Virus record (IMG/VR): IMGVR_UViG_2617270976_000011 | Coordinates: 1-9,855 of that record | Length of the DNA: 9,855 nt | From: a virus | Taxonomy: Duplodnaviria > Heunggongvirae > Uroviricota > Caudoviricetes | Reading direction: 5' to 3' (one strand) | Program-made: the position numbers and the translations under genes | Shown: piece after piece, positions 1 to 9,555 of the stretch | Position numbering within the stretch: the first letter of the stretch is position 1 | Layout of the letters: each line of letters begins with the position of its first letter | The notes under the pieces: model-generated | The model's input: the letters and a program-made list of their open reading frames with translations, nothing else | Database searches by the model: none | What the model was told of the DNA's origin: nothing

Positions 1-996
1 TTATGGACGCATTATGGACATTCCTGACACCGGGTTAAGAGTCACAGCATCTTGTAAGAAATCCGGTGCAAAGTGTGCGTAGGTCATAGTTTGCTGAATG
101 TTAGAATGACCCAGGATGCGCTGCAATGTGATTATGTTACCTCCATTAATTATAAAATGTGTGGCAAATGTATGCCTCAAAACATGTACTGCTTGTCCGT
201 CAGGTAAATCGGGTTTTACTTCCCTGAGAGCGTTACGCACTTTGTAGTAACTGGCATTAAAAAGCCTGCCTGAATTTTTGGTCTTGATCCTTTTAATCAG
301 GTCCTGCGAAACGGGAATTGTCCTGCGCTTTCCGTTTTTAGTTTTCATAAACGTAACCATCTGGTTAATGATGTGTTCAGCTTTCAAATTAGACACTTCA
401 CTCCAGCGTCCACCAGTAGAAAGGCAGACTAGAGTTGCATTTAACTCATCACCATCAAGCATGGATAACAGCCGCGTAATCTCTTCACTGGACAAAAAAG
501 CCATTTCTGTAACAGCTTCACGTAACCGCTTAACCTCACGGAACGGGTTGTGAGAGTGGTATTCACCGGCGTCAATTAACTTGGTGAACATCCCGCTCAT
601 TATTGCCAGATGCCGATTTACGCTGGCTGGTTTTAGACCATCGTTCATCATTACAACTCGATAATCAGTTATCGTTTTCTTTGTTAACTGGTCAGCTCTG
701 GACACTCCCATTTCTGCAAATTTGGCGATTATTGTCGTCAAACGCCCCCGTTCAATATTTCCACGCTCATGTGATTTTCCGTGATATATCCACCATCTGC
801 CTAACAACTCTGTAAGAGTTCGGCGGTCGGCTGGCTTCTCCAGCCACTCTTTGTTGTGGTAGTTAACCAGCACATGACGTTCGAATGCTTGAGCTTCACC
901 TTTAGTTTTAAATTTCCGCCTGATACGTTTTCCATCTGCACCCTGCGGTCTGACGTCCACTTCATAACGACCATCATCGAGCTTTTTAATAGACAT
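1..996 (-). CDS. int: Phage tyrosine integrase, P2 family, complete (331 aa)
   Basis: Full-length minus-strand ORF. The C-terminal catalytic region has HxxR (HVLRHTFATHF) and a conserved Tyr (MTYAHFAPDF). The N-terminus MSIKKLDDGRYEV matches my recollection of P2 Int (337 aa). A GGAGGG Shine-Dalgarno lies just upstream of the ATG at 994-996. Confidence 0.9.
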   Translation of the reverse strand: MSIKKLDDGRYEVDVRPQGADGKRIRRKFKTKGEAQAFERHVLVNYHNKEWLEKPADRRTLTELLGRWWIYHGKSHERGNIERGRLTTIIAKFAEMGVSRADQLTKKTITDYRVVMMNDGLKPASVNRHLAIMSGMFTKLIDAGEYHSHNPFREVKRLREAVTEMAFLSSEEITRLLSMLDGDELNATLVCLSTGGRWSEVSNLKAEHIINQMVTFMKTKNGKRRTIPVSQDLIKRIKTKNSGRLFNASYYKVRNALREVKPDLPDGQAVHVLRHTFATHFIINGGNIITLQRILGHSNIQQTMTYAHFAPDFLQDAVTLNPVSGMSIMRP

Positions 997-1089
997 AAAG
1001 CCCTCCGATGACGCTGTTTACTTCTACTACTTGAAAATTAATGCAATTTTCTTTCGTACATTTACTGCACACATATGCTGAATAAATCG

Positions 1090-1401
1090 TCAGCCAGTCT
1101 TTTGGTCTGAGTGGTGCAAGGTTGTTGAGTCTTGCCCAATGTGCGCGAGCGCCGGGGCTATTTGTCCGCCAGCGGGATCAGTTTCATCAAACATGAACCA
1201 GTCACGGTACTTGCGAAATCTTTCTGGCTTGAAAAATTTCATACCTGCGTCAAAAGACATCTTTACTTTTCCCTGCTCATATCCAGCATAGGTGTTGTAG
1301 TTAATTCCAGTTAATTCAGCAACTTGCTTCCTTGTCATTCTTTCTGATTCCCGAATAAGTGCGAGTTTCTCTGCTTGAGATGTGATTTGTGTATTTGACA
1401 T
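1090..1401 (-). CDS. C: P2 C-type immunity repressor (about 103 aa)
   Basis: The track ORF (1090-1449) contains an internal Met at 1399-1401 that begins MSNTQITSQ, and its C-terminus GQIAPALAHIGQDSTTLHHSDQKTG matches my recollection of P2 C (99 aa). It lies immediately upstream of int on the same strand, as in P2. The 16 extra N-terminal codons in the track ORF are probably not translated. Confidence 0.8.
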   Translation of the reverse strand: MSNTQITSQAEKLALIRESERMTRKQVAELTGINYNTYAGYEQGKVKMSFDAGMKFFKPERFRKYRDWFMFDETDPAGGQIAPALAHIGQDSTTLHHSDQKTG

Positions 1402-1505
1402 GAATTGTCGTATCTCGTAATTTATGTTGTATGCGACACACCAGAACAACGCAGAGCGGCTTCAAATAGCTCTGGTTGAATGGCACCAAAGTTGAGGATA
1501 TCAAA
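1402..1505. promoter_or_regulatory. Immunity/early switch intergenic region between divergent C and cox starts (expected Pc/Pe promoters and repressor operators)
   Basis: 104-bp AT-rich spacer between the divergent start codons. It contains imperfect direct repeats TGTCGTAT (1406-1413) and TGTTGTAT (1425-1432). P2 C repressor is known to bind direct repeats; the specific sites here are not verified. Confidence 0.35.
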
Positions 1506-2690
1506 ATGAGTATTGGATCAGAAATGAATAACGATGTTGGAGAAAAAGTATCTGATCTCACAAAAAGTAAAAAATGTGACATCAAACTTGCAGCCGCACC
1601 GTCGGATTTGCTCTCGAAAGAGGGTTTTGCTCTTTACATCGGTAAGACGCCTCGCGCTGTTGCTGAAATGGCGAAAGCAGGCAAGTTACCAGCCTTTTAT
1701 ATGACGGACCCATTAAAGCCGGGCGGTCATGCTGAGTTATGGATTAACCGGGGCGGTGCTGCGGGGTATATCGCGAAATACATTTCAAAAAACATCGACG
1801 GCTATGCACTGGATGGTCAGCTCGATAACGACACCGGCAGGCCGCTGAAAGACACTGCCGCGGCTGTTACCGCATGGGCGTCAACGTGGCGCATTCCGCA
1901 ATTTAAAACGGTTGGCCTGCCGACAATGGGGGCTTACCGTGAACTACGCAAATTACCTCGCGGCGTCAGCATTGCTGATGAGTTTGACGAACGCGTCGAG
2001 GCTGCACGCGCTGCCGCAGACAGTGGCGATTTTGCGCTGTATATCAGCGCGCAGGGTGGGGCAAATGTCCCGCGCGATTGTCAGACTGTCAGGGTCGCCC
2101 GTAGTCCGTCGGATGAAGTTAACGAGTACGAGGAAGAAGTCGAGAGAGTGGTCGGCATTTACGCGCCGCATCTCGGCGCGCGTCATATTCATATCACCAG
2201 AACGACGGACTGGCGCATTGTTCCGAAAGTGCCGGTCGTTGAGCCTTTGACTTTAAAAAGCGGCATCGCCGCGCCTCGGAGTCCTGTCAATAACTGTGGA
2301 AAGCTTGCCGACGGTGGCGATCCAGTTATGACACCTACGCCGTCTGAGCATGCCGCAGCGGTGCTAAATCTTGTCGATGATGGGGTTATTGCATGGGATG
2401 ACCCCGAAGTTGTGACGGTGCTCAGGAGTGCATTAAAACACGGCGCGCCGCAGCAAAATCGACAGCAAAGAAGCGATGAGCCATTAAAATCGAATCAGAT
2501 AGCACCATCAGGGCGAATGACAAAAGCCGAGAGGGCTCAGATTCCGCGCATCCGCTTCGAACTGGCGCAGCAGGGTATCACGCCGCAGCGGTGGGAACTT
2601 CAGGCGCTGGCTCGTGGCGGAATAGTGGTTTATGGCGAAAAAAGATTTGTATACCCGATAGCGGACGAGTGGGTGAAGCATGAAGGGTGA
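1506..2690 (+). CDS. In-frame deletion fusion: Cox-like HTH N-terminus (about 80 aa) joined to the C-terminal ~310 aa of rolling-circle replication initiator gpA; probably a non-functional remnant
   Basis: The N-terminal segment FALYIGKTPRAVAEMAKAGKLPAFYMTDPLKPGGHAELWINR resembles P2 Cox. It runs directly into GYIAKYISKNIDGY, the paired-tyrosine (Y-x-x-x-Y) motif of phiX174/P2 A-type initiators. Gene B and the N-terminal ~450 aa of A are absent. A GAGGA Shine-Dalgarno precedes the ATG at 1506; the track ORF starts earlier at 1476. Confidence 0.7.
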   Translation: MSIGSEMNNDVGEKVSDLTKSKKCDIKLAAAPSDLLSKEGFALYIGKTPRAVAEMAKAGKLPAFYMTDPLKPGGHAELWINRGGAAGYIAKYISKNIDGYALDGQLDNDTGRPLKDTAAAVTAWASTWRIPQFKTVGLPTMGAYRELRKLPRGVSIADEFDERVEAARAAADSGDFALYISAQGGANVPRDCQTVRVARSPSDEVNEYEEEVERVVGIYAPHLGARHIHITRTTDWRIVPKVPVVEPLTLKSGIAAPRSPVNNCGKLADGGDPVMTPTPSEHAAAVLNLVDDGVIAWDDPEVVTVLRSALKHGAPQQNRQQRSDEPLKSNQIAPSGRMTKAERAQIPRIRFELAQQGITPQRWELQALARGGIVVYGEKRFVYPIADEWVKHEG

Positions 2691-2753
2691 TTTATATCCA
2701 TCTAAATCATGATGTTATGATGGCCGTGTGAGTTCTTTTCTGATTGGGGCTGC

Positions 2754-2928
2754 GTTCGACGGCTTGAAATGTTGTAAATGCTCATAATCTGGTTTAAAGT
2801 GTTTTTATGCCAACGACTAGGAGCATCTCCAGTCATAAATGTTGGCCTCTACAGGCCTTTATATAGTGTTGCTCTTGTACTGCCTTCTCTTTCGAGAGAA
2901 GGTATGTACAAGAAGTAAAGCCTGCGAA
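2754..2928 (+). ncRNA. Candidate retron msr-msd non-coding RNA (boundaries approximate)
   Basis: Non-coding leader directly upstream of, and co-oriented with, the RT gene. Candidate a1 TTCGACGGCTT (2754-2764) is complementary to candidate a2 AAGCCTGCGAA (2918-2928) at 9 of 11 positions, with a G immediately 3' of a1. A strong hairpin at 2876-2910 sits just 5' of a2, where an msd stem would be. Not confirmed by folding or covariance. Confidence 0.3.
2876..2910 (+). repeat. Inverted-repeat hairpin: 8-bp perfect core CCTTCTCT/AGAGAAGG with a TTCG (UUCG) tetraloop, extendable to about 15 pairs with one G-T wobble and a 1-nt bulge
   Basis: Read directly: 2883-2890 CCTTCTCT, loop 2891-2894 TTCG, 2895-2902 AGAGAAGG; outer arms TGTAC (2876-2880) and GTACA (2906-2910). 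Confidence 0.8.
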
Positions 2929-3016
2929 GGGAGGGTGTCTGGGGTGAGGAAAGACTGAGAGTTAAAGCATTCATCTTAGAATCCATTCAACTCAAAAAAC
3001 AAAAGCTCAGCCAACG

Positions 3017-4006
3017 ATGAAACCCCTTAGTCTCGAAAAAGCCTTCAATATTGCATTCTTCGAAAAAGATTCCTTTCAAAACTTTCTTTCGTTTGAACCA
3101 TTTCAACAAACTAAATTTATAACCTTTGATGAAAGGTTAATTGCTGAGCCCACTTCTAAACTAAAAGAGTATCACAAATTCATAAATGAATTTGTTCTTT
3201 CATACTTGAAAGTAAATAAGGATGTTGTGTTTTCGTATAGAAAAGGAAGCAGCACTTATGATGCAGTAAAACTTCACGCCTGTAGTAAGATATTCTTCAA
3301 TACTGATATTAAAAGCTTTTTCCCATCGATAACTCGTGAATATGCACGATCAGTTTTAGTTGATAACTTATCGAACGTTCCCATTTCCGATTTAAATATA
3401 CACTTGGATAAAATTTTAGATTATATTATTATCGATAATTCGTTGCCTGTAGGGTTCCCGACATCACCAGCTTTCAGCAATGCATGTTTATATGACTTTG
3501 ATGTTGAGATGCAGCAATATTGTATTAACCATGAATATATATTCACACGCTATTCAGATGATATTATTATTTCCTCTGAAAATGATGAGGGCTTTGAGAA
3601 TATTCATTCTGTAGTAAGTGACCTGCTGGGTGAGTTTGGGAAGGGACATTTCAAACTAAACTCAGCAAAAACTAAATTGATTAAAAAAGGCAGTAAGATT
3701 AAGCTGCTGGGGATGGTTATTTTACCGTCTCAGATAGTCTCTGTTGATATTAAAATAAAAAGAAAGCTTGAGCATTTGATTCATTTTTATGTAACGGATA
3801 AAGATAAATTTATAGATTCTATAATAAAAGATCCTAAGGTTAAAACTAGCGGATTGAATGATAGTGAGATCTTGGAAAAGGGCGTTAATACAGTTTCTGG
3901 TCTTTTGAATCATATAAACACAATTGATAAGAGTTATCTCGATAAGCTAAAGAGAAAATACGGAAATACGATTGTCGATATGCTTTTTTACAAGAATGTA
4001 AATTAA
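3017..4006 (+). CDS. Reverse transcriptase, retron-type (329 aa)
   Basis: RT motifs are in canonical order: SSTYDAVKLHA (NAxxH-like box, residues 78-88), DIKSFFPSI (motif A, 97-105), LPVGFPTSPAFSN (QG-P-SP box, 143-155), YSDD catalytic box (179-182, nt 3551-3562), LLGMVI (230-235). Small size, no maturase or endonuclease domain, a non-coding structured leader upstream and an effector gene downstream all fit a retron. AT-rich coding sequence. Confidence 0.85.
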   Translation: MKPLSLEKAFNIAFFEKDSFQNFLSFEPFQQTKFITFDERLIAEPTSKLKEYHKFINEFVLSYLKVNKDVVFSYRKGSSTYDAVKLHACSKIFFNTDIKSFFPSITREYARSVLVDNLSNVPISDLNIHLDKILDYIIIDNSLPVGFPTSPAFSNACLYDFDVEMQQYCINHEYIFTRYSDDIIISSENDEGFENIHSVVSDLLGEFGKGHFKLNSAKTKLIKKGSKIKLLGMVILPSQIVSVDIKIKRKLEHLIHFYVTDKDKFIDSIIKDPKVKTSGLNDSEILEKGVNTVSGLLNHINTIDKSYLDKLKRKYGNTIVDMLFYKNVN

Positions 4007-4007
4007 A

Positions 4008-5360
4008 ATGAAAATAAATATTGAGATCTCGAAAATCCAGCATGTTGAACATATGTCATTTGCTATTGATCTTTCTGAAAATAAACTGACTTGCATTGTA
4101 GGAAAGAACGGTGCTGGAAAGACAACGCTAATCAAAGCAATTAAAAATTTACAATCAGCAGATACATTCATAAAGACATCTTCTAGATATATATTCAATC
4201 CTGACAGTAGTATAGTATATAATATTAATGATCAAGATATAGTATATGTCTATGATGAGAATTTGAAGGTAATAGATACTAAGCAAATAATTCCAGCAGA
4301 TATAAAATCCAATCTTTATGTCGAGTTGCCCATTCCTCATGGAATGAGGTTCAATAACTTCCCAACACTTAGTAAAATTGATACTGAACTTAGAAAAAGT
4401 ATTGCGTTTGAAAGCTATAGCGTTCCCGAGGATTTGATAAATATACTCAATGAGGTATATCAGTCTTCTTCTTACAATAATCTTAAAGCATTTTCTGTAA
4501 AAAATGAAATTTTCTATTTCAGATTGAATGAGAACGGAACATACATAAGGGAGGATTACTTTAGCTCGGGTGAGTATTTTATTTTGAATTTATTTAGAAT
4601 GATTGAGCTCAAAAGAAAATTCATTGTCATAGATGAGATAGATATATCACTAGACTCTTCGGCGCAAGTCCATCTTATAGCAGTGCTAAGGAAATATTGT
4701 CAGAGACACTCGGTGAATATTGTATTCACAACACATTCACTTGCTTTAATGCAAACGCTGAATGATGATGAATTGTACTATATGTGCGAAGGTGATGCTG
4801 GAACTACAATTACAAATCGATCATATAATTATATAAAAAGTACGCTTTTTGGATTTAAAGGATGGGATAAGTACATTCTTACTGAAGATGAAGTTCTGCA
4901 AAATTTCTTAGAATATATAATTAATGCTCCTGGGAATGATTACTTCTACGAATATAAAATAATATATGTTGGTGGAGGAACTAATGTCATTGATTTAATG
5001 CGTCGTAATGAGAGAGAGAGCTTTCTCACGACTCAACAGAATGTGATCTCAGTGTTAGACGGAGATCAATTAGGTCAAAGGCATGCTCGAGGTGAAAATA
5101 TTTTATGCATACCTTTCCAAAGCGTTGAGAAGGATTTCTATCAAGCATACGGCCAAGATGAATCGATCCCGAGAGTTACAACTAGAGGTAACGATAAACT
5201 TGATAAGCAAGTTTATCGAGGGGTAGTGAAAACCTATGACAACGGCTGGGATGAAACTAGGATTTTTGAATACCTTGAGAGGTTAAAGCCTGATGAATGT
5301 GAGGCTTTCAGGCAAAAAATTAGAGCATTTCTCCAAAGAAATATTTCGGCAGAGGGTTGA
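4008..5360 (+). CDS. OLD-family ABC-type ATPase with C-terminal TOPRIM-like nuclease domain (450 aa); probable retron effector
   Basis: Walker A GKNGAGKTT (residues 32-40, nt 4101-4127), ABC-signature-like FSSGE (185-189), Walker B FIVIDEID (205-212), H-loop TTHS (241-244). The C-terminal half has TOPRIM-like acidic residues: ILTEDEV (Glu ~293) and VLDGDQ (DxD, 351-353). The ATG lies 1 nt after the RT stop (TAA 4004-4006, ATG 4008-4010). Confidence 0.8.
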   Translation: MKINIEISKIQHVEHMSFAIDLSENKLTCIVGKNGAGKTTLIKAIKNLQSADTFIKTSSRYIFNPDSSIVYNINDQDIVYVYDENLKVIDTKQIIPADIKSNLYVELPIPHGMRFNNFPTLSKIDTELRKSIAFESYSVPEDLINILNEVYQSSSYNNLKAFSVKNEIFYFRLNENGTYIREDYFSSGEYFILNLFRMIELKRKFIVIDEIDISLDSSAQVHLIAVLRKYCQRHSVNIVFTTHSLALMQTLNDDELYYMCEGDAGTTITNRSYNYIKSTLFGFKGWDKYILTEDEVLQNFLEYIINAPGNDYFYEYKIIYVGGGTNVIDLMRRNERESFLTTQQNVISVLDGDQLGQRHARGENILCIPFQSVEKDFYQAYGQDESIPRVTTRGNDKLDKQVYRGVVKTYDNGWDETRIFEYLERLKPDECEAFRQKIRAFLQRNISAEG

Positions 5361-5502
5361 ATATAAGCTTCGGGATCTCATGCCTCTCTATCTGCATGAA
5401 ATTGCATTTGATAATTCCTATTTTTCTCGTGAACTGTGTCACGTTAGGCGCAGCTCAGGGCTCATAATGCATCTGCATTAAAACCGCCCCACGAAGCGGG
5501 CG

Positions 5503-5521
5503 GGCGAGGCGGGGAAAGCAC
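5503..5521. other. Candidate P2-type cos cohesive-end sequence GGCGAGGCGGGGAAAGCAC
   Basis: The 19-mer matches my recollection of the P2 19-nt cohesive end. It sits in a GC-rich non-coding stretch between the cargo cassette and head/tail remnants, which is where cos lies in a P2 prophage (between old and Q). Identification is from memory, not a search. Confidence 0.5.
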
Positions 5522-5663
5522 TGCGCGCTGGCGGTGGTGCTGATTTTATTTTTTCAGCGTCTGAGCGCGTCGTGAAGGCGTTTACTTGGCCTGCTGGGGC
5601 GTTGGTGTGTCTGCGGGATTTTTTGTGCGGTGATGAGCGTGTGAGGGCGTGATGACAGGGTAT

Positions 5664-5685
5664 AAAAAAGCCGCCCGCAGGCGGC
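5664..5685 (-). terminator. Intrinsic terminator-like hairpin for leftward transcription (GCCGCC-TGCG-GGCGGC followed by TTTTTT on the minus strand)
   Basis: Plus strand shows AAAAAA (5664-5669), GCCGCC (5670-5675), CGCA loop, GGCGGC (5680-5685). This lies immediately downstream of the minus-strand ORF stop at 5691-5693. Confidence 0.55.
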
Positions 5686-5690
5686 GATGT

Positions 5691-6209
5691 TCAGCCGTTG
5701 TCAGTGTCCAGTGAGTAGTTTTTAAAGCGGATGACCTCCTGACCGAGCCAGCCGTTTATCTCGCGGATCCTGTCCTGTAGCGGGATAAGCTCATTGCGGA
5801 CAAAGACCTTTGCCACTTTCTCAATATCACCCAGCGACCCGACGTTCTCCGGCTTGCCTCCCATCAACTGAAAGGGGATGCGGTGCGCGTCCAGCAGGTC
5901 AGCGGCGCTGGCTTTTTTGATATTAAAAAAATCGTCCTTCGTTGCGACTTCACTGAGCGGGATAATTTTAATGCCGTCGGCTTTCCCCTGCGGGGCATAG
6001 AGAAACAGATTTTTAAAGTTGTTGCGGCCTTTCGACTTGACCATGTTTTCGCGAATACGGGATGCGTGACCGTTCAGCTCGCGCAGTGATTTTTGTGTTT
6101 CCCGGATATCCCCCGACAGCGACCTGCTCGCTGTACGGATGGATTTAAACGGGCGGGATGCCTGGTCAACAGCCCTGAGCAATACCTGTAATTTTACATT
6201 GTTACTCAT
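5691..6209 (-). CDS. Chimeric ORF (172 aa): N-terminal ~60 aa consistent with the start of tape-measure gene T, fused to a ~110-aa portal-like (gpQ-like) C-terminal segment
   Basis: Its ATG (6207-6209) overlaps the stop of the upstream E' frame (TAA 6203-6205) as ATGAGTAA, the position expected for the start of T after E/E'. The C-terminal part (AHRIPFQLMGG ... NELIPLQDRIREINGWL) resembles a conserved C-terminal portal motif. Its own frame is closed by a TGA 18 codons upstream of the ATG. Confidence 0.45.
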   Translation of the reverse strand: MSNNVKLQVLLRAVDQASRPFKSIRTASRSLSGDIRETQKSLRELNGHASRIRENMVKSKGRNNFKNLFLYAPQGKADGIKIIPLSEVATKDDFFNIKKASAADLLDAHRIPFQLMGGKPENVGSLGDIEKVAKVFVRNELIPLQDRIREINGWLGQEVIRFKNYSLDTDNG

Positions 6210-6491
6210 TCGTGTTTCCGCTTCGCCGGAGCGCCTTTTCGCGCCATGTGATGAGTTCGGTCAGGCTCATGGGATACAGTTCTGATGGCGGCCAGTGAAA
6301 TATCACAGCCACATCCGCCATCAGGTCATCGACCGAGAGATTTTTCGGAAACGTCACTGCACCGAGTTCGGCGACAAAAAACCGACCACCTTACCGGCCA
6401 GCGCCACAAGGTCAGGCAGTTCCAGCGCGGCGACTTCCTGCTCGGTCAGAACAGGTAAAGCTGCTGATAGCGACCGGAGGCCGTGGATTTT
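6203..6491 (-). pseudogene. 5'-truncated remnant of tail assembly chaperone genes E and E+E' (programmed -1 frameshift pair)
   Basis: Minus-strand frame 0 reads ...LTEQEVAALELPDLVALAGKVVGFLSPNSVQ-stop, with no start codon and an in-frame stop at 6492-6494. The -1 frame continues from the slippery site as FFVAELGAVTFPKNLSVDDLMADVAVIFHWPPSELYPMSLTELITWREKALRRSGNTNE-stop. Seven codons after the slip in frame 0 and a 58-codon extension fit the 91-aa and 142-aa sizes I recall for P2 E and E+E'. Confidence 0.5.
6375..6381 (-). other. -1 programmed ribosomal frameshift slippery heptamer T_TTT_TTG
   Basis: Plus strand is CAAAAAA at 6375-6381, i.e. TTTTTTG on the minus strand, positioned in frame as X_XXY_YYZ seven codons before the frame-0 stop. 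I recall the same heptamer as the P2 E/E' frameshift site. Confidence 0.5.
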
Positions 6492-6526
6492 TCACCGCGA
6501 CGGTTAAACACCTTCGCCGGTCGACC

Positions 6527-9256
6527 ATGTGCGAACGGGTGGTCACTGTAGTCGGTGAAGATTTCCGGCTTTCCCAGCAGGATTTCAGCCGCTTTGTGCT
6601 GGATTTTCTGGTGTTCGGTAATGCGTTTCTGGAAAAGCGTTACAGCACCACCGGTAAGGTCATCAGACTGGAAACCTCACCGGCAAAATATACCCGCCGT
6701 GGTGTGGAGGAGGATGTTTACTGGTGGGTGCCGTCCTTCAACGAGCCGACAGCCTTCGCGCCCGGCTCCGTGTTTCACCTGCTGGAGCCGGATATTAATC
6801 AGGAGCTGTACGGCCTGCCGGAATATCTCAGCGCCCTTAACTCTGCCTGGCTGAATGAGTCAGCCACGCTGTTCCGCCGCAAGTATTACGAAAACGGCGC
6901 ACATGCCGGATACATCATGTACGTCACTGATGCCGTGCAGGATCGCAACGATATCGAAATGCTTGAGGGATTCCGCAAGACCAGTGCACAGCTTGCCGTG
7001 ACTGGTCATGCACTTGAAAAGGCTCGGCAGGAAGCCGAAGCCCTTGCCACACAGTTTAAAAACACCGAACGTCCGACCCGTGCTCAGGCGAAAGTGCTGG
7101 AATCCGCAAAGCGTGCGGCGGAGGACTTACAGGCGAAATATAACCGCCTGACGGATTCCGTTAAACGCCAGCAGCGGGAACTGGCCGCTGTGGGAATTAA
7201 TACCCGCAATCTTGCACATGATGAGCAGGGACTGAAAAACCGTATCAGTGAAACCACCGCACAGCTTAACCGTCAGCGTGATGCGCTGGCGCGTGTCAGT
7301 GCGCAACAGGCAAAACTTAACGCAGTCAAACAGCGTTATCAGGCCGGAAAGGAACTGGCCGGAAATATGGCCTCAGTAGGCGCTGCCGGTGTGGGGATTG
7401 CGGCGGCGGGAACGATGGCCGGAGTTAAATTGCTGATGCCCGGTTATGAGTTTGCGCAGAAAAACTCAGAATTGCAGGCCGTGCTCGGAGTGGCAAAAGA
7501 CTCCGCCGAAATGACCGCACTCCGCAAGCAGGCGCGCCAGCTCGGCGACAATACCGCAGCCTCGGCAGATGATGCAGCCGGTGCACAGATAATCATTGCG
7601 AAAGCGGGTGGAGATGCTGCGGCTATTCAGGCAGCAACGCCGGTCACACTGAATATGGCACTGGCAAACCAGCGGTCGATGGAAGAAAACGCGCAATTGT
7701 TGCTGGGGACTAAGGCATCCTTTCAACTGTCAAATGATGATGTCAGCCATGTGGGCGACGTGTTGTCGGCAACGATGAATAAGTCGGCGGCTGATTTTCA
7801 GGGACTCAGTGATGCACTGACTTACCTCGGCCCGGTTGCGAGGACGGCAGGTGTAAGTATTGAGCAGGCAGCGGCCATGACCGGTGTGCTGCATGACAAT
7901 AACATCAGGGGGTCAATGGCGGGTACGGGTAGCAGTGCCGTTGTCACCCGATTACAGGCACCGACTGGAAAAGCATGGGATGCACTCAAAGAGCTTGGCG
8001 TTAAAACCTCGGACAAAAAGGGAAATATGCGTCCGTTGTTCACCATTCTGAAAGAGATTCAGGCCAGCTTTGATAAGCATAAGCTGGGAACGTCTCAGAA
8101 GGGGGAATACCTTAAAACCATTTTTGGTGAGGAAGCCCTGAAATCAGCGAACGTTTTACTGGCAGCGGCAGCAAGCGGAAAACTGGATACGCTGACCGCC
8201 ACGCTGAAAGCCTCGGACGGTAAAACGGAAGAGCTGGTTAAAATCATGCAGGATAACCTCGGCGGTGACTTTAAGGAGTTTCAGTCCGCTTATGAGGCGG
8301 TGGGGACTGACCTGTTTGACCAGCAGGAAGGCGCACTGCGTAAGCTCACTCAGACGGCCACAAAGTATGTGTTAAAACTCGACGGCTGGATCCAGAAAAA
8401 CAAATCACTGGCGTCAACCATCGGCCTCATTGTCGGTGGCGCGCTGGCGCTTATTGGCATCATCGGTGCCATTGGTCTTGTCGCCTGGCCGGTTATCACC
8501 GGCATCAATGCCATTATCGCGGCAGCAGGCGCAATGGGGGCAATCTTCACGACGGTTAGCAGTGCTGTTATGACGGCCATCGGGGCGATTAGCTGGCCGG
8601 TTGTGGCCGTGGTGGCCGCCATTGTCGCCGGGGCGTTGCTTATCCGTAAATACTGGGAGCCTGTCAGCGCATTCTTTGGCGGTGTGGTGGAAGGGCTGAA
8701 AGCGGCATTTGCGCCGGTGGGGGAACTGTTCACGCCACTGAAGCCGGTGTTTGACTGGCTGGGTGAAAAGTTACAGGCCGTGTGGCAGTGGTTTAAAAAC
8801 CTGATTGCCCCGGTCAAAGCCACCCAGGACACCCTGAACCGTTGCCGTGACACGGGCGTTATGTTCGGGCAGGCACTGGCTGACGCGCTGATGCTGCCGC
8901 TTAATGCGTTCAACAAACTGCGCAGCGGTATTGACTGGGTACTGGAAAAACTCGGTGTTATCAACAAAGAGTCAGACACACTTGACCAGACCGCCGCAAG
9001 GACTCATGCCGCCACGTATGGCACCGGTGGTTATATTCCGGCGACCAGCTCTTATGCTGGCTATCAGGCTTATCAGCCGGTCACGGCACCGGCTGGCCGC
9101 TCTTATGTGGACCAGAGTAAAAACGAATATCACATCAACCTGACGGGCGGTACTGCGCCGGGGACACAGCTCGACCGCCAGTTACAGGATGCGCTCGAAA
9201 AATACGAGCGGGATAAACGTGCGCGCGCCCGTGCCAGCATGATGCATGACGGTTAA
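6527..9256 (+). CDS. Chimeric long ORF (909 aa): N-terminal ~150-aa portal-like segment fused in frame to ~745 aa of phage tail tape-measure protein (gpT-like)
   Basis: From about residue 160 onward the protein has a long coiled-coil region, a conserved tape-measure core (ASFQLSNDDVSHVGDVLSATMNKSAADFQGLSDALTYLGPVARTAGVSIEQAAAMTGVLHDNN) and Gly/Ala/Ile-rich hydrophobic segments. The first ~150 residues (e.g. FRRKYYENGAHAGYIMYVTDAVQDRNDIEMLEG) are unlike tape measure and look portal-like. No Shine-Dalgarno precedes the ATG, and the frame is open back to 6299 without a start. Confidence 0.75.
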   Translation: MCERVVTVVGEDFRLSQQDFSRFVLDFLVFGNAFLEKRYSTTGKVIRLETSPAKYTRRGVEEDVYWWVPSFNEPTAFAPGSVFHLLEPDINQELYGLPEYLSALNSAWLNESATLFRRKYYENGAHAGYIMYVTDAVQDRNDIEMLEGFRKTSAQLAVTGHALEKARQEAEALATQFKNTERPTRAQAKVLESAKRAAEDLQAKYNRLTDSVKRQQRELAAVGINTRNLAHDEQGLKNRISETTAQLNRQRDALARVSAQQAKLNAVKQRYQAGKELAGNMASVGAAGVGIAAAGTMAGVKLLMPGYEFAQKNSELQAVLGVAKDSAEMTALRKQARQLGDNTAASADDAAGAQIIIAKAGGDAAAIQAATPVTLNMALANQRSMEENAQLLLGTKASFQLSNDDVSHVGDVLSATMNKSAADFQGLSDALTYLGPVARTAGVSIEQAAAMTGVLHDNNIRGSMAGTGSSAVVTRLQAPTGKAWDALKELGVKTSDKKGNMRPLFTILKEIQASFDKHKLGTSQKGEYLKTIFGEEALKSANVLLAAAASGKLDTLTATLKASDGKTEELVKIMQDNLGGDFKEFQSAYEAVGTDLFDQQEGALRKLTQTATKYVLKLDGWIQKNKSLASTIGLIVGGALALIGIIGAIGLVAWPVITGINAIIAAAGAMGAIFTTVSSAVMTAIGAISWPVVAVVAAIVAGALLIRKYWEPVSAFFGGVVEGLKAAFAPVGELFTPLKPVFDWLGEKLQAVWQWFKNLIAPVKATQDTLNRCRDTGVMFGQALADALMLPLNAFNKLRSGIDWVLEKLGVINKESDTLDQTAARTHAATYGTGGYIPATSSYAGYQAYQPVTAPAGRSYVDQSKNEYHINLTGGTAPGTQLDRQLQDALEKYERDKRARARASMMHDG

Positions 9257-9270
9257 GGAGGTGACGAAAA

Positions 9271-9555
9271 ATGATGCTCGCGTTAGGTATGTTTGTTTTT
9301 ATGCGCCAGACGCTGCCACACCAGACCATGCAGCGTGAATCAGATTATCGCTGGCCGTCAAATTCCCGTACCGGTCGTGCAGATATTTACACGGAAACAC
9401 CGGTCAGAGTGTCAGGCTTTAAGCGCGTCATAGACGAGCAGGACTGGACAATCACTAAGGTGACACATTTTCTGAATAATAGCGGCTTCACGACGTCCTT
9501 AGAGCTTGAGGTCAGGCTTTCTGATGTGGAGTACGAAACAGAAGATTATGAGTGA
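9271..9555 (+). CDS. Truncated tail protein remnant (94 aa): gpU-like N-terminus, possibly fused to a gpD-like C-terminus
   Basis: A strong AAGGAGGTGA Shine-Dalgarno (9255-9264) precedes the ATG, 15 nt after the T stop, which is where U sits in the P2 FETUD operon. At 94 aa it is far shorter than U (about 159 aa) or D (about 387 aa), so an internal deletion is likely. The U/D fusion point is inferred, not demonstrated. Confidence 0.45.
   Translation: MMLALGMFVFMRQTLPHQTMQRESDYRWPSNSRTGRADIYTETPVRVSGFKRVIDEQDWTITKVTHFLNNSGFTTSLELEVRLSDVEYETEDYE

Follow-up and report, generated by a model that had tools for sequence, protein, structure and literature searches.

The early region of a P2-like prophage remnant in E. 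coli 2-316-03_S4_C2 contains one open reading frame (ORF) that opens as the excision factor Cox and closes as the replication initiator gpA, raising the question of whether this hybrid is a native protein, an assembly artefact, a domesticated chimaera or the scar of a deletion. We analysed a window of 9,855 nucleotides, that is, the whole stretch of DNA, which corresponds to positions 8496-18350 of the 188-kb contig JNQT01000004.1, is flanked by pflA and pflB, and comprises the entire remnant (~9.9 kb left of ~31.5 kb). Comparison with intact relatives indicates that the ORF is very probably the scar of one illegitimate deletion at TTAA microhomology, which left an inactive hybrid in the course of ordinary prophage decay. 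The features on which this argument draws are collected in Table 1.

Table 1. Coordinates of features in the 9,855-nucleotide window.
Feature	Position	Strand	Details
Immunity repressor gene C	1090..1401	-	103 aa, intact; base-identical to C of AHM21C2872I, WP_000072552.1; Pfam HTH matches
Putative early promoter Pe	1395..1432	+	TTGACA 1395-1400; weak -10 TAATTT 1418-1423
Direct repeats TGTYGTAT (8 bp), candidate C operators	1406-1413 and 1425-1432		Flank the weak -10
Chimaeric cox'::'A ORF	1506..2690	+	394 aa plus stop; Shine-Dalgarno GAGGA 1494-1498
cox' part	1506..1747	+	Cox codons 1-81 of 118: N-terminal extension and winged-HTH to the wing strand; C-terminal helices gone
Deletion junction	1744..1747	.	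4-bp microhomology; cox codons 80-81 and A codons 442-443 both carry TTAA
'A part	1748..2690	+	gpA residues 444-756 plus stop; identical to the A 3' end of the intact relative
Rolling-circle motif III, YIAKY, kept	1767..1781	+	Fusion Y88/Y92 = gpA Y450/Y454
ori segment	2260..2300	+	Hairpin GCGGCATCGCCGC (2260-2272, picked up in scan), then GCGCCTCGGAGTCCTGTCAATAAC; nick position 2278 by P2 mapping
Structured intergenic region	2691..3016	+	Presumed retron ncRNA (msr-msd) and promoter, from folding
Retron type I-B reverse transcriptase (RT)	3017-4006	+	329 aa, full length; PADLOC RT_I-B, E = 6.5e-110
Retron ATPase-Toprim effector	4008-5360	+	450 aa, full length; ATPase-Toprim_I-B, E = 1.6e-179, 442 of 443 profile positions

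Origin of the cox-A junction

The program-listed version of the ORF runs from an upstream TTG (1476-2690, 404 aa). We place its start at the ATG at 1506, which follows a GAGGA sequence and is the start annotated for cox in intact relatives. In a Pfam search the product matched Phage_Cox (PF10743; E = 1.8e-19, 69.8 bits against a cut-off of 27.5, profile positions 2-59 of 87), directly followed by Phage_GPA (PF05840), for which just positions 302-321 of 321 aligned and the score, 21.9 bits, fell under the cut-off of 31.4. The first 81 residues are identical (81/81) to those of the stand-alone, 118-aa pro147-type Cox, WP_000022051.1, of which the C-terminal 37 residues are gone, while the last 313 are identical to the C-terminal end of a 756-aa gpA. 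The residue at the joint, encoded by a codon that spans the junction, is both N81 of Cox and N443 of gpA. The exact protein is deposited for this strain as KDY23374.1 under the name 'phage replication protein A', a label that amounts to database mis-annotation.

An earlier, sequence-only reading of the window had proposed an in-frame cox::A fusion and named the outcome that would overturn it, namely that the N-terminal segment is native to a long gpA-like protein. The alignments point the other way. Window positions 1000-1750 are 99.9% identical to the C-cox region of phage pro147, in which cox stands alone as a gene of 357 bp, with orf78, B, four small ORFs and then an A gene of 2.3 kb downstream of it; positions 1744-2672 match the 3' part of A in P2-like phages at 86-88% (86.3% DNA identity for P2 A 29358-30286, a stretch that overlaps the annotated 'nick site at ori'). 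A separate 118-aa cox is found in pro147, AHM21C2872I, E24377A, 98-3133 and 10 further loci, 1.7 kb upstream of an A gene encoding 723-770 aa, with orf78, B and orf80-83 in between, and in a search of 5.8 billion proteins none covered more than 80% of the fusion. The neighbouring C repressor is very common as an exact protein (11,597 index blocks), and sampling via this protein returned intact early operons in 10 of the 10 contexts shown. That the Cox-like segment is a native part of gpA is thus the least credible of the readings considered, and its probability is close to nil.

The junction was mapped against the prophage of E. coli AHM21C2872I, which is the best relative among 5,426 complete E. 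coli genomes, occupies the same pflA-pflB site and carries the same RT and ATPase cargo in a complete prophage. Two of its pieces, within a span of 9,251 bp, align with window positions 1-6055 at 99.9% identity. By base-by-base extension, the window agrees with the cox side as far as 1747 and with the A side starting at 1744, so that exactly 3,196 bp are missing. The segment lost comprises Cox residues 82-118, orf78, B, orf80-83 and gpA residues 1-442, together with a terminator-like hairpin that is annotated after B in P2 (equivalent hairpin at L006 2739-2754). The earlier reading had placed the junction at 1745-1760 and foreseen the loss of B and of about 450 residues of gpA (the count is 442), all of which agrees closely with this map; its estimate of a deletion of roughly 2 kb was too small, and orf78, orf80-83 and the Cox C terminus were also taken.

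The reading frame of A in the intact phage is shifted by +1 from that of cox; as 3,196 equals 3 x 1065 + 1, the deletion brings the two into a single frame. The best explanation is one 3,196-bp deletion in the early operon of a P2-like prophage with pro147-type immunity, integrated at the pflA start codon; that codon 81 of cox met codon 443 of A in frame was a matter of chance, with a probability of about 1 in 3. The fusion ORF carries 0 substitutions relative to the intact relative, with 5 differences over the 6,055 bp compared, and the event therefore looks recent; it was presumably neutral or mildly advantageous.

The junction is rare. It is absent from the 5,426 complete E. coli genomes, its 32-mer was found in none of the genome, metagenome and viral contig collections, and the exact fusion protein is confined to two assemblies, one from NCBI and one from Logan. 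Restriction to one strain, and the possibility that one isolate gave rise to both of these assemblies, would be compatible with a chimeric contig produced by sequencing or assembly. Such an artefact is nevertheless highly improbable, since all 9,855 bases are identical in two different assemblies (GCA_000704325.1 and a separate Logan assembly of SRR1186598), the contig extends for 188 kb with normal chromosomal flanks, the remaining junctions of the remnant are equally clean and analogous junctions are present in a finished NCTC genome. Moreover, the 4-bp overlap lies far below any assembler k-mer and is much too short for a mis-join, so that the fusion is a real genomic structure rather than chance or artefact.

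Residual Cox and gpA modules

We compared each half of the hybrid with its characterized counterpart in P2. In an alignment with the P2 Cox structure 4LHF, the winged-HTH of the fusion pairs with residues 8-57 and the Cox part ends right after the wing. Phage_Cox profile positions 60-87 are absent, and the fusion also lacks the equivalent of P2 Cox residues 58-91; where Cox would continue with residues 82-118, including the equivalent of helices alpha3-alpha4, the fusion continues with gpA sequence. P2 Cox is an excision directionality factor and Pc repressor whose two C-terminal helices build an oligomeric filament; its activity requires oligomerization and is destroyed by removal of the last 20 residues (PMC3936717). 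The product, if made, would on this side comprise the N-terminal extension of Cox plus its winged-HTH, but not the helices needed to oligomerize and function. As these helices are missing, the excision and Pc-repressor functions are predicted to be lost, and we infer that the fusion is inactive as an excision or switch factor.

On the gpA side, fusion residues 82-394 are collinear with residues 444-761 of the P2 protein (AF063097 A, 761 aa), an HUH rolling-circle initiator. Common to both are the YIAKY motif and the ori nick sequence GCGCCTCGGAGTCCTGTCAA within the coding region, and an alignment of 57 sequences shows G84, A86, Y88 and K91 to be invariant. In contrast, the fusion lacks the N-terminal 442 residues, with which motif I (FITLT) and motif II (HUH; H399-W-H401), both upstream of the break in intact gpA, were deleted, leaving one of the three catalytic motifs. 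The 'catalytic YIAKY region' of the earlier reading is thus correct for the tyrosines but not for a catalytic centre, of which the other two motifs are gone. In HUH endonucleases, motif II binds the catalytic metal and is required in addition to the motif III tyrosine (PMC5714925). With the HUH metal site deleted, nicking activity is presumably lost: any product would present the YxxxY tyrosine helix and the C-terminal third of gpA but neither motif I nor the metal site, and is predicted to be inactive as a replication initiator, without site-specific nicking or joining at ori.

A natural precedent for a shortened initiator is phiX174 A*, a rolling-circle initiator truncated at its N terminus by use of an internal start. 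Both proteins lack the initiator N terminus and both have the tyrosine motif, but A* keeps its HUH motif and is catalytically active, whereas the fusion has no HUH motif and arose by deletion.

Structure prediction and fold searching added nothing to this reading. The AlphaFold2 model of the fusion, based on the 57-sequence alignment, had a mean pLDDT of 51 and a pTM of 0.27, with no model obtained for the Cox part, and is too poor to tell whether the chimaera folds. The last ~110 residues of gpA alone were predicted with confidence as a folded unit (pLDDT 80-96). A Foldseek search of the PDB returned no match below E = 1 and shed no light on the C-terminal region of gpA, and a sequence search of the PDB gave P2 Cox 4LHF as the sole match, with no solved relative of gpA.

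Analogous fusions and clustered breakpoints in cox

Other prophages carry comparable scars. In the finished genome of NCTC9100, an in-frame fusion links Cox residues 1-78 to about residue 240 of gpA; the product, WP_126510772.1, has 593 aa and is annotated 'Cox family DNA-binding protein'. In P0130 an almost full-length Cox continues into gpA at about residue 170, and in P0120 the N terminus of a 186-type CII does so at about residue 385. As these fusions are independent, scars of this kind recur in decaying P2/186-like prophages. A protein search with Cox for more fusions yielded just P0179 and frameshift variants, fusions being hidden inside gpA clusters.

The NCTC9100 fusion is a striking parallel, as the att site, the C repressor and the in-frame type of early-operon deletion are all alike and its cox breakpoint lies 8 bp upstream of ours. 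It differs from the window in still having the HUH and tyrosine motifs, in showing no microhomology at the junction and in its downstream cargo, which is an ABC-three-component system instead of a retron. Its junction is likewise private. Because each of the two fusions retains sequence missing in the other, neither can be derived from the other. A third, independent deletion starts at almost the same place: in GCA_038399695.1 and four Logan contigs, Cox 1-80 runs out of frame into portal sequence in antisense orientation.

Alternatively, the chimaera could be a domesticated protein in which the Cox winged-HTH tethers the C-terminal region of gpA to Cox boxes or ori; there it would exclude incoming P2-like phages or P4 satellites, or act on them as a dominant negative, or else regulate the downstream retron. 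The open frame with a good ribosome-binding site, the position of the break exactly after the wing, a domain boundary, the independent in-frame fusion in NCTC9100 and the confidently predicted fold at the gpA C terminus would all suit such a function. However, the junction is private to one strain, the zero substitutions since the event leave no visible sign of selection on the product, and the out-of-frame deletion at the same cox spot indicates that an in-frame state is not required. In addition, the NCTC9100 fusion retains another part of gpA, P2 Cox is inactive without the C-terminal helices that the fusion lacks (see above), and PADLOC returned no match for the fusion itself. We consider a functional chimaera improbable, although the Cox winged-HTH might conceivably retain some function, and favour an inert deletion scar, a reading with which no observation conflicts.

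The left endpoints of the three deletions fall within 8 bp of one another (L006 coordinates: NCTC9100, 1916; GCA_038399695.1, 1923; window, 1921-1924), while the right endpoints lie 2.6, 7.5 and 3.2 kb away (4510, 9475 and 5117, respectively). Two of the three produce in-frame Cox-wHTH::gpA chimaeras, and all three junctions are private or rare. For these n = 3 deletions, which were ascertained through similarity to the window and to Cox, the chance of three endpoints within 8 bp is ~0.0015 if endpoints are uniform over cox and ~1e-5 over the 4.4-kb early operon. At exactly this spot there is an ATTAAT palindrome (L006 1920-1925).

One tentative interpretation, which we hold to be possible but doubtful, is that cox codons 78-81 (window 1739-1747, ATTAAT) form a breakage or recombination hot spot that seeds grounding deletions in a widespread family. 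If true, such a hot spot would imply either that a nuclease, a defence system or a phage enzyme makes a site-specific cut here and the left end is protected, or that selection favours retention of exactly the DNA-binding module of Cox. Confirmation of the cluster across thousands of lysogens would suggest that these prophages are inactivated by a specific mechanism.

Several candidate causes of the cluster were considered and rejected. A local DNA hairpin or cruciform gave a z-score of +0.51. As for an integrase pseudo-att site, the match of the hot spot to the att core ACCAATAACTGAC scores just 6, whereas 7 or more is reached at 192 overlapping positions elsewhere in the prophage, the true attR core included. 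Chi-dependent protection was discarded because the prophage has no Chi, and ATTAAT-specific cutting as a general cause because the other ten of the 11 ATTAAT sites are unused by other breakpoints. The mosaic homology boundary lies about 150 bp upstream (L006 ~1772), and the half-site resemblance of a serine-invertase quasi-site, judged by eye, puts the crossover 5-6 bp from the breakpoints.

The grounded remnant, its ori and its retron cargo

The deletion left the origin of replication in place. The P2 record (AF063097) annotates position 29892 as a rep_origin, 'nick site at ori'; the corresponding window position is 2278, and the 61 nt around the nick are identical to P2 at 58 positions and to the intact relative at all 61. 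The survival of an ori-like site within A, which the earlier reading had raised, is confirmed at the level of sequence; in the remnant the nick site may be a mere passenger inside coding sequence. P2 gpA is cis-acting, and the surviving ori beside the retron provides a natural test of whether the gpA of a related phage acts in trans on a chromosomal ori.

With B lost and the initiator and Cox functions presumably lost, the prophage would neither replicate nor excise and would be locked in the chromosome. This accords with the earlier claim that it is replication-defective, as both B and gpA motifs I and II are gone. Decay extends beyond the early operon. A reciprocal inversion links the portal gene Q and the tape-measure gene T, with 2-bp overlaps at 6054-6055 and 6963-6964; two internal deletions in the inverted segment leave just E' and a 133-bp fragment of the lysozyme gene; and a U-D deletion has a 7-bp overlap (9369-9375). 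Kept intact are int, C, the type I-B retron and ogr.

A cryptic P2 remnant of E. coli K-12 was reportedly described by Barreiro and Haggard-Ljungquist in 1992. The window shares with that remnant, and with other grounded P2-like prophages, the shrinkage by deletion to a few genes with ogr at attR (relatives carry an ogrK annotation), but differs in having int, C, the Pe/Pc switch, defence cargo and chimaeric in-frame ORFs at its junctions. The remnant shows a textbook grounding pattern resolved to the base, in which int, the repressor and the host-useful retron cargo stay while B is gone and neither an excision factor nor a functional initiator is predicted to remain. Taken alone, the fusion adds one more case of a familiar process and matters little.

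The immunity switch upstream of the fusion is preserved. Window positions 1001-1747, which include C and the divergent Pe/Pc region, do not differ at any base from the intact prophage. The TTGACA hexamer of Pe is perfect and overlaps the C start as in P2, and the geometry of the promoter and repeats, as read from the sequence, copies the annotated P2 layout of Pe, O1 and O2; a consensus promoter scan of the window called neither Pe nor Pc. Given this identity, Pe should be repressed by intact C in the resting cell.

A scan between the fusion stop and the RT gene gave no convincing terminator, and read-through from the fusion into the retron is possible. The intergenic region (326 nt) is strongly structured (minimum free energy -99.5 kcal/mol, z = -3.44, with 0 of 100 shuffles folding as well), as a retron ncRNA would be; an Rfam search of the entire window (E <= 1) gave just two chance matches and no retron msr family. 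The gpA-gpQ interval is a defence hotspot of P2-like phages (PMC9122126), and the retron cassette is located there. Across 3017..5360 the genes and their lengths are as in the intact relative, from which the cassette differs by three substitutions, one of them non-synonymous (RT P273 versus S).

Rearrangements of the late region

The portal gene Q and the tape-measure gene T of the remnant have undergone a reciprocal inversion, with 2-bp overlaps at 6054-6055 and 6963-6964, that yields two chimaeric ORFs (Table). Overlaps of 2 bp at the two joints would be expected from a serine invertase; a Cin/Hin-like recombinase is encoded (L006 24393-24986) by the intact relative, the complete prophage of E. 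coli AHM21C2872I. What is left within the inverted segment is a set of fragments (6054-6575), which implies two further deletions of ~10.9 kb and ~6.2 kb.

Downstream, a 1.35-kb deletion joined the gpU N-terminus to the gpD C-terminus in frame. This in-frame state is common to every junction ORF of the remnant (cox::A, T::Q, Q::T and U::D), roughly a 1-in-27 coincidence if three independent events are assumed. The parental phage was itself a mosaic with a late region unlike that of the AHM21C2872I prophage, since identity to that prophage is 99.9% across the int-to-Q segment (1-6055) versus just 90.7% across the tape-measure/U segment (6963-9375).

Features of the remnant and of the cox deletion endpoints (window coordinates unless a locus is named; L007, NCTC9100; L010, GCA_038399695.1)
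Feature	Position	Strand	Remarks
Left-end cluster	1739-1747; L007 3239/3240; L010 8237-8241		one prophage family, n=3 deletions
Hairpin GCGGC-ATC-GCCGC	2260-2272		perfect 5-bp stem; directly 5' of ori nick sequence
Type I-B retron	2691-5360		RT + ATPase-Toprim; 30-33% GC; in P2 gpA-gpQ defence hotspot
T(1-52)::Q(C-terminus) chimaeric ORF	5691-6209	-	172 aa; in frame; product of Q/T inversion
T 5' end + E/E'	6054-6449		remnant within inverted segment
Lysozyme gene piece	6443-6575		133 bp; remnant within inverted segment
Q(middle)::T(rest) chimaeric ORF	6527-9256	+	909 aa; in frame; product of Q/T inversion
U::D fusion ORF	9271-9555	+	94 aa; junction overlap 9369-9375

Deletion endpoints in cox

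The left ends of three independent deletions, in the window, NCTC9100 and GCA_038399695.1, all fall inside 8 bp at cox codons 78-81, the site of an ATTAAT palindrome; their right ends are all different. Assuming endpoints uniform over cox, such clustering has P ~0.0015. Two of the three deletions yield an in-frame Cox::gpA fusion.

Public data from other genomes also hold a 186-type CII::gpA fusion of 481 aa (P0120), a P2-type Cox::gpA fusion of 537 aa with an HUH-region deletion inside it (P0130) and a gpX::Cox fusion of 104 aa (P0201), as well as many truncated gpA ORFs on megabase contigs.

The ori hairpin and the retron cassette

The hairpin adjacent to ori is kept in P2, and its minus-strand score is terminator-like. 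Strong structure (z = -3.4) was found in the 326 nt upstream of the retron RT. This 326-nt region matched no Rfam family, so the type I-B retron ncRNA seems to be absent from Rfam. Comparison of the window's retron with that of the intact relative revealed a P versus S difference at RT residue 273.

Integration at pflA and decay of other copies

The start codon of pflA is overlapped by the att core, ACCAATAACTGAC; the stretches concerned, 8387-8464 and 18457-18479 of L004 (the locus with its flanking host DNA), lie just beyond the window. In the lysogen AAG stands where pflA originally had its ATG, and the ORF called for pflA begins in phage DNA, 19 codons upstream (MSNLTNCNTTENTATAGATK-SVIGRIH...). 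The prophage therefore supplies a new pflA 5' end and, presumably, a new pflA promoter.

At the same site, the remnant of E. coli O157:H16 98-3133 carries IS30 in place of orf78, directly after an intact cox (L023 2572-3723), together with a P-to-U deletion, while E24377A has IS21 within T and a Q-E deletion. These two patterns of decay show that the site harbours a series of copies that decayed independently.
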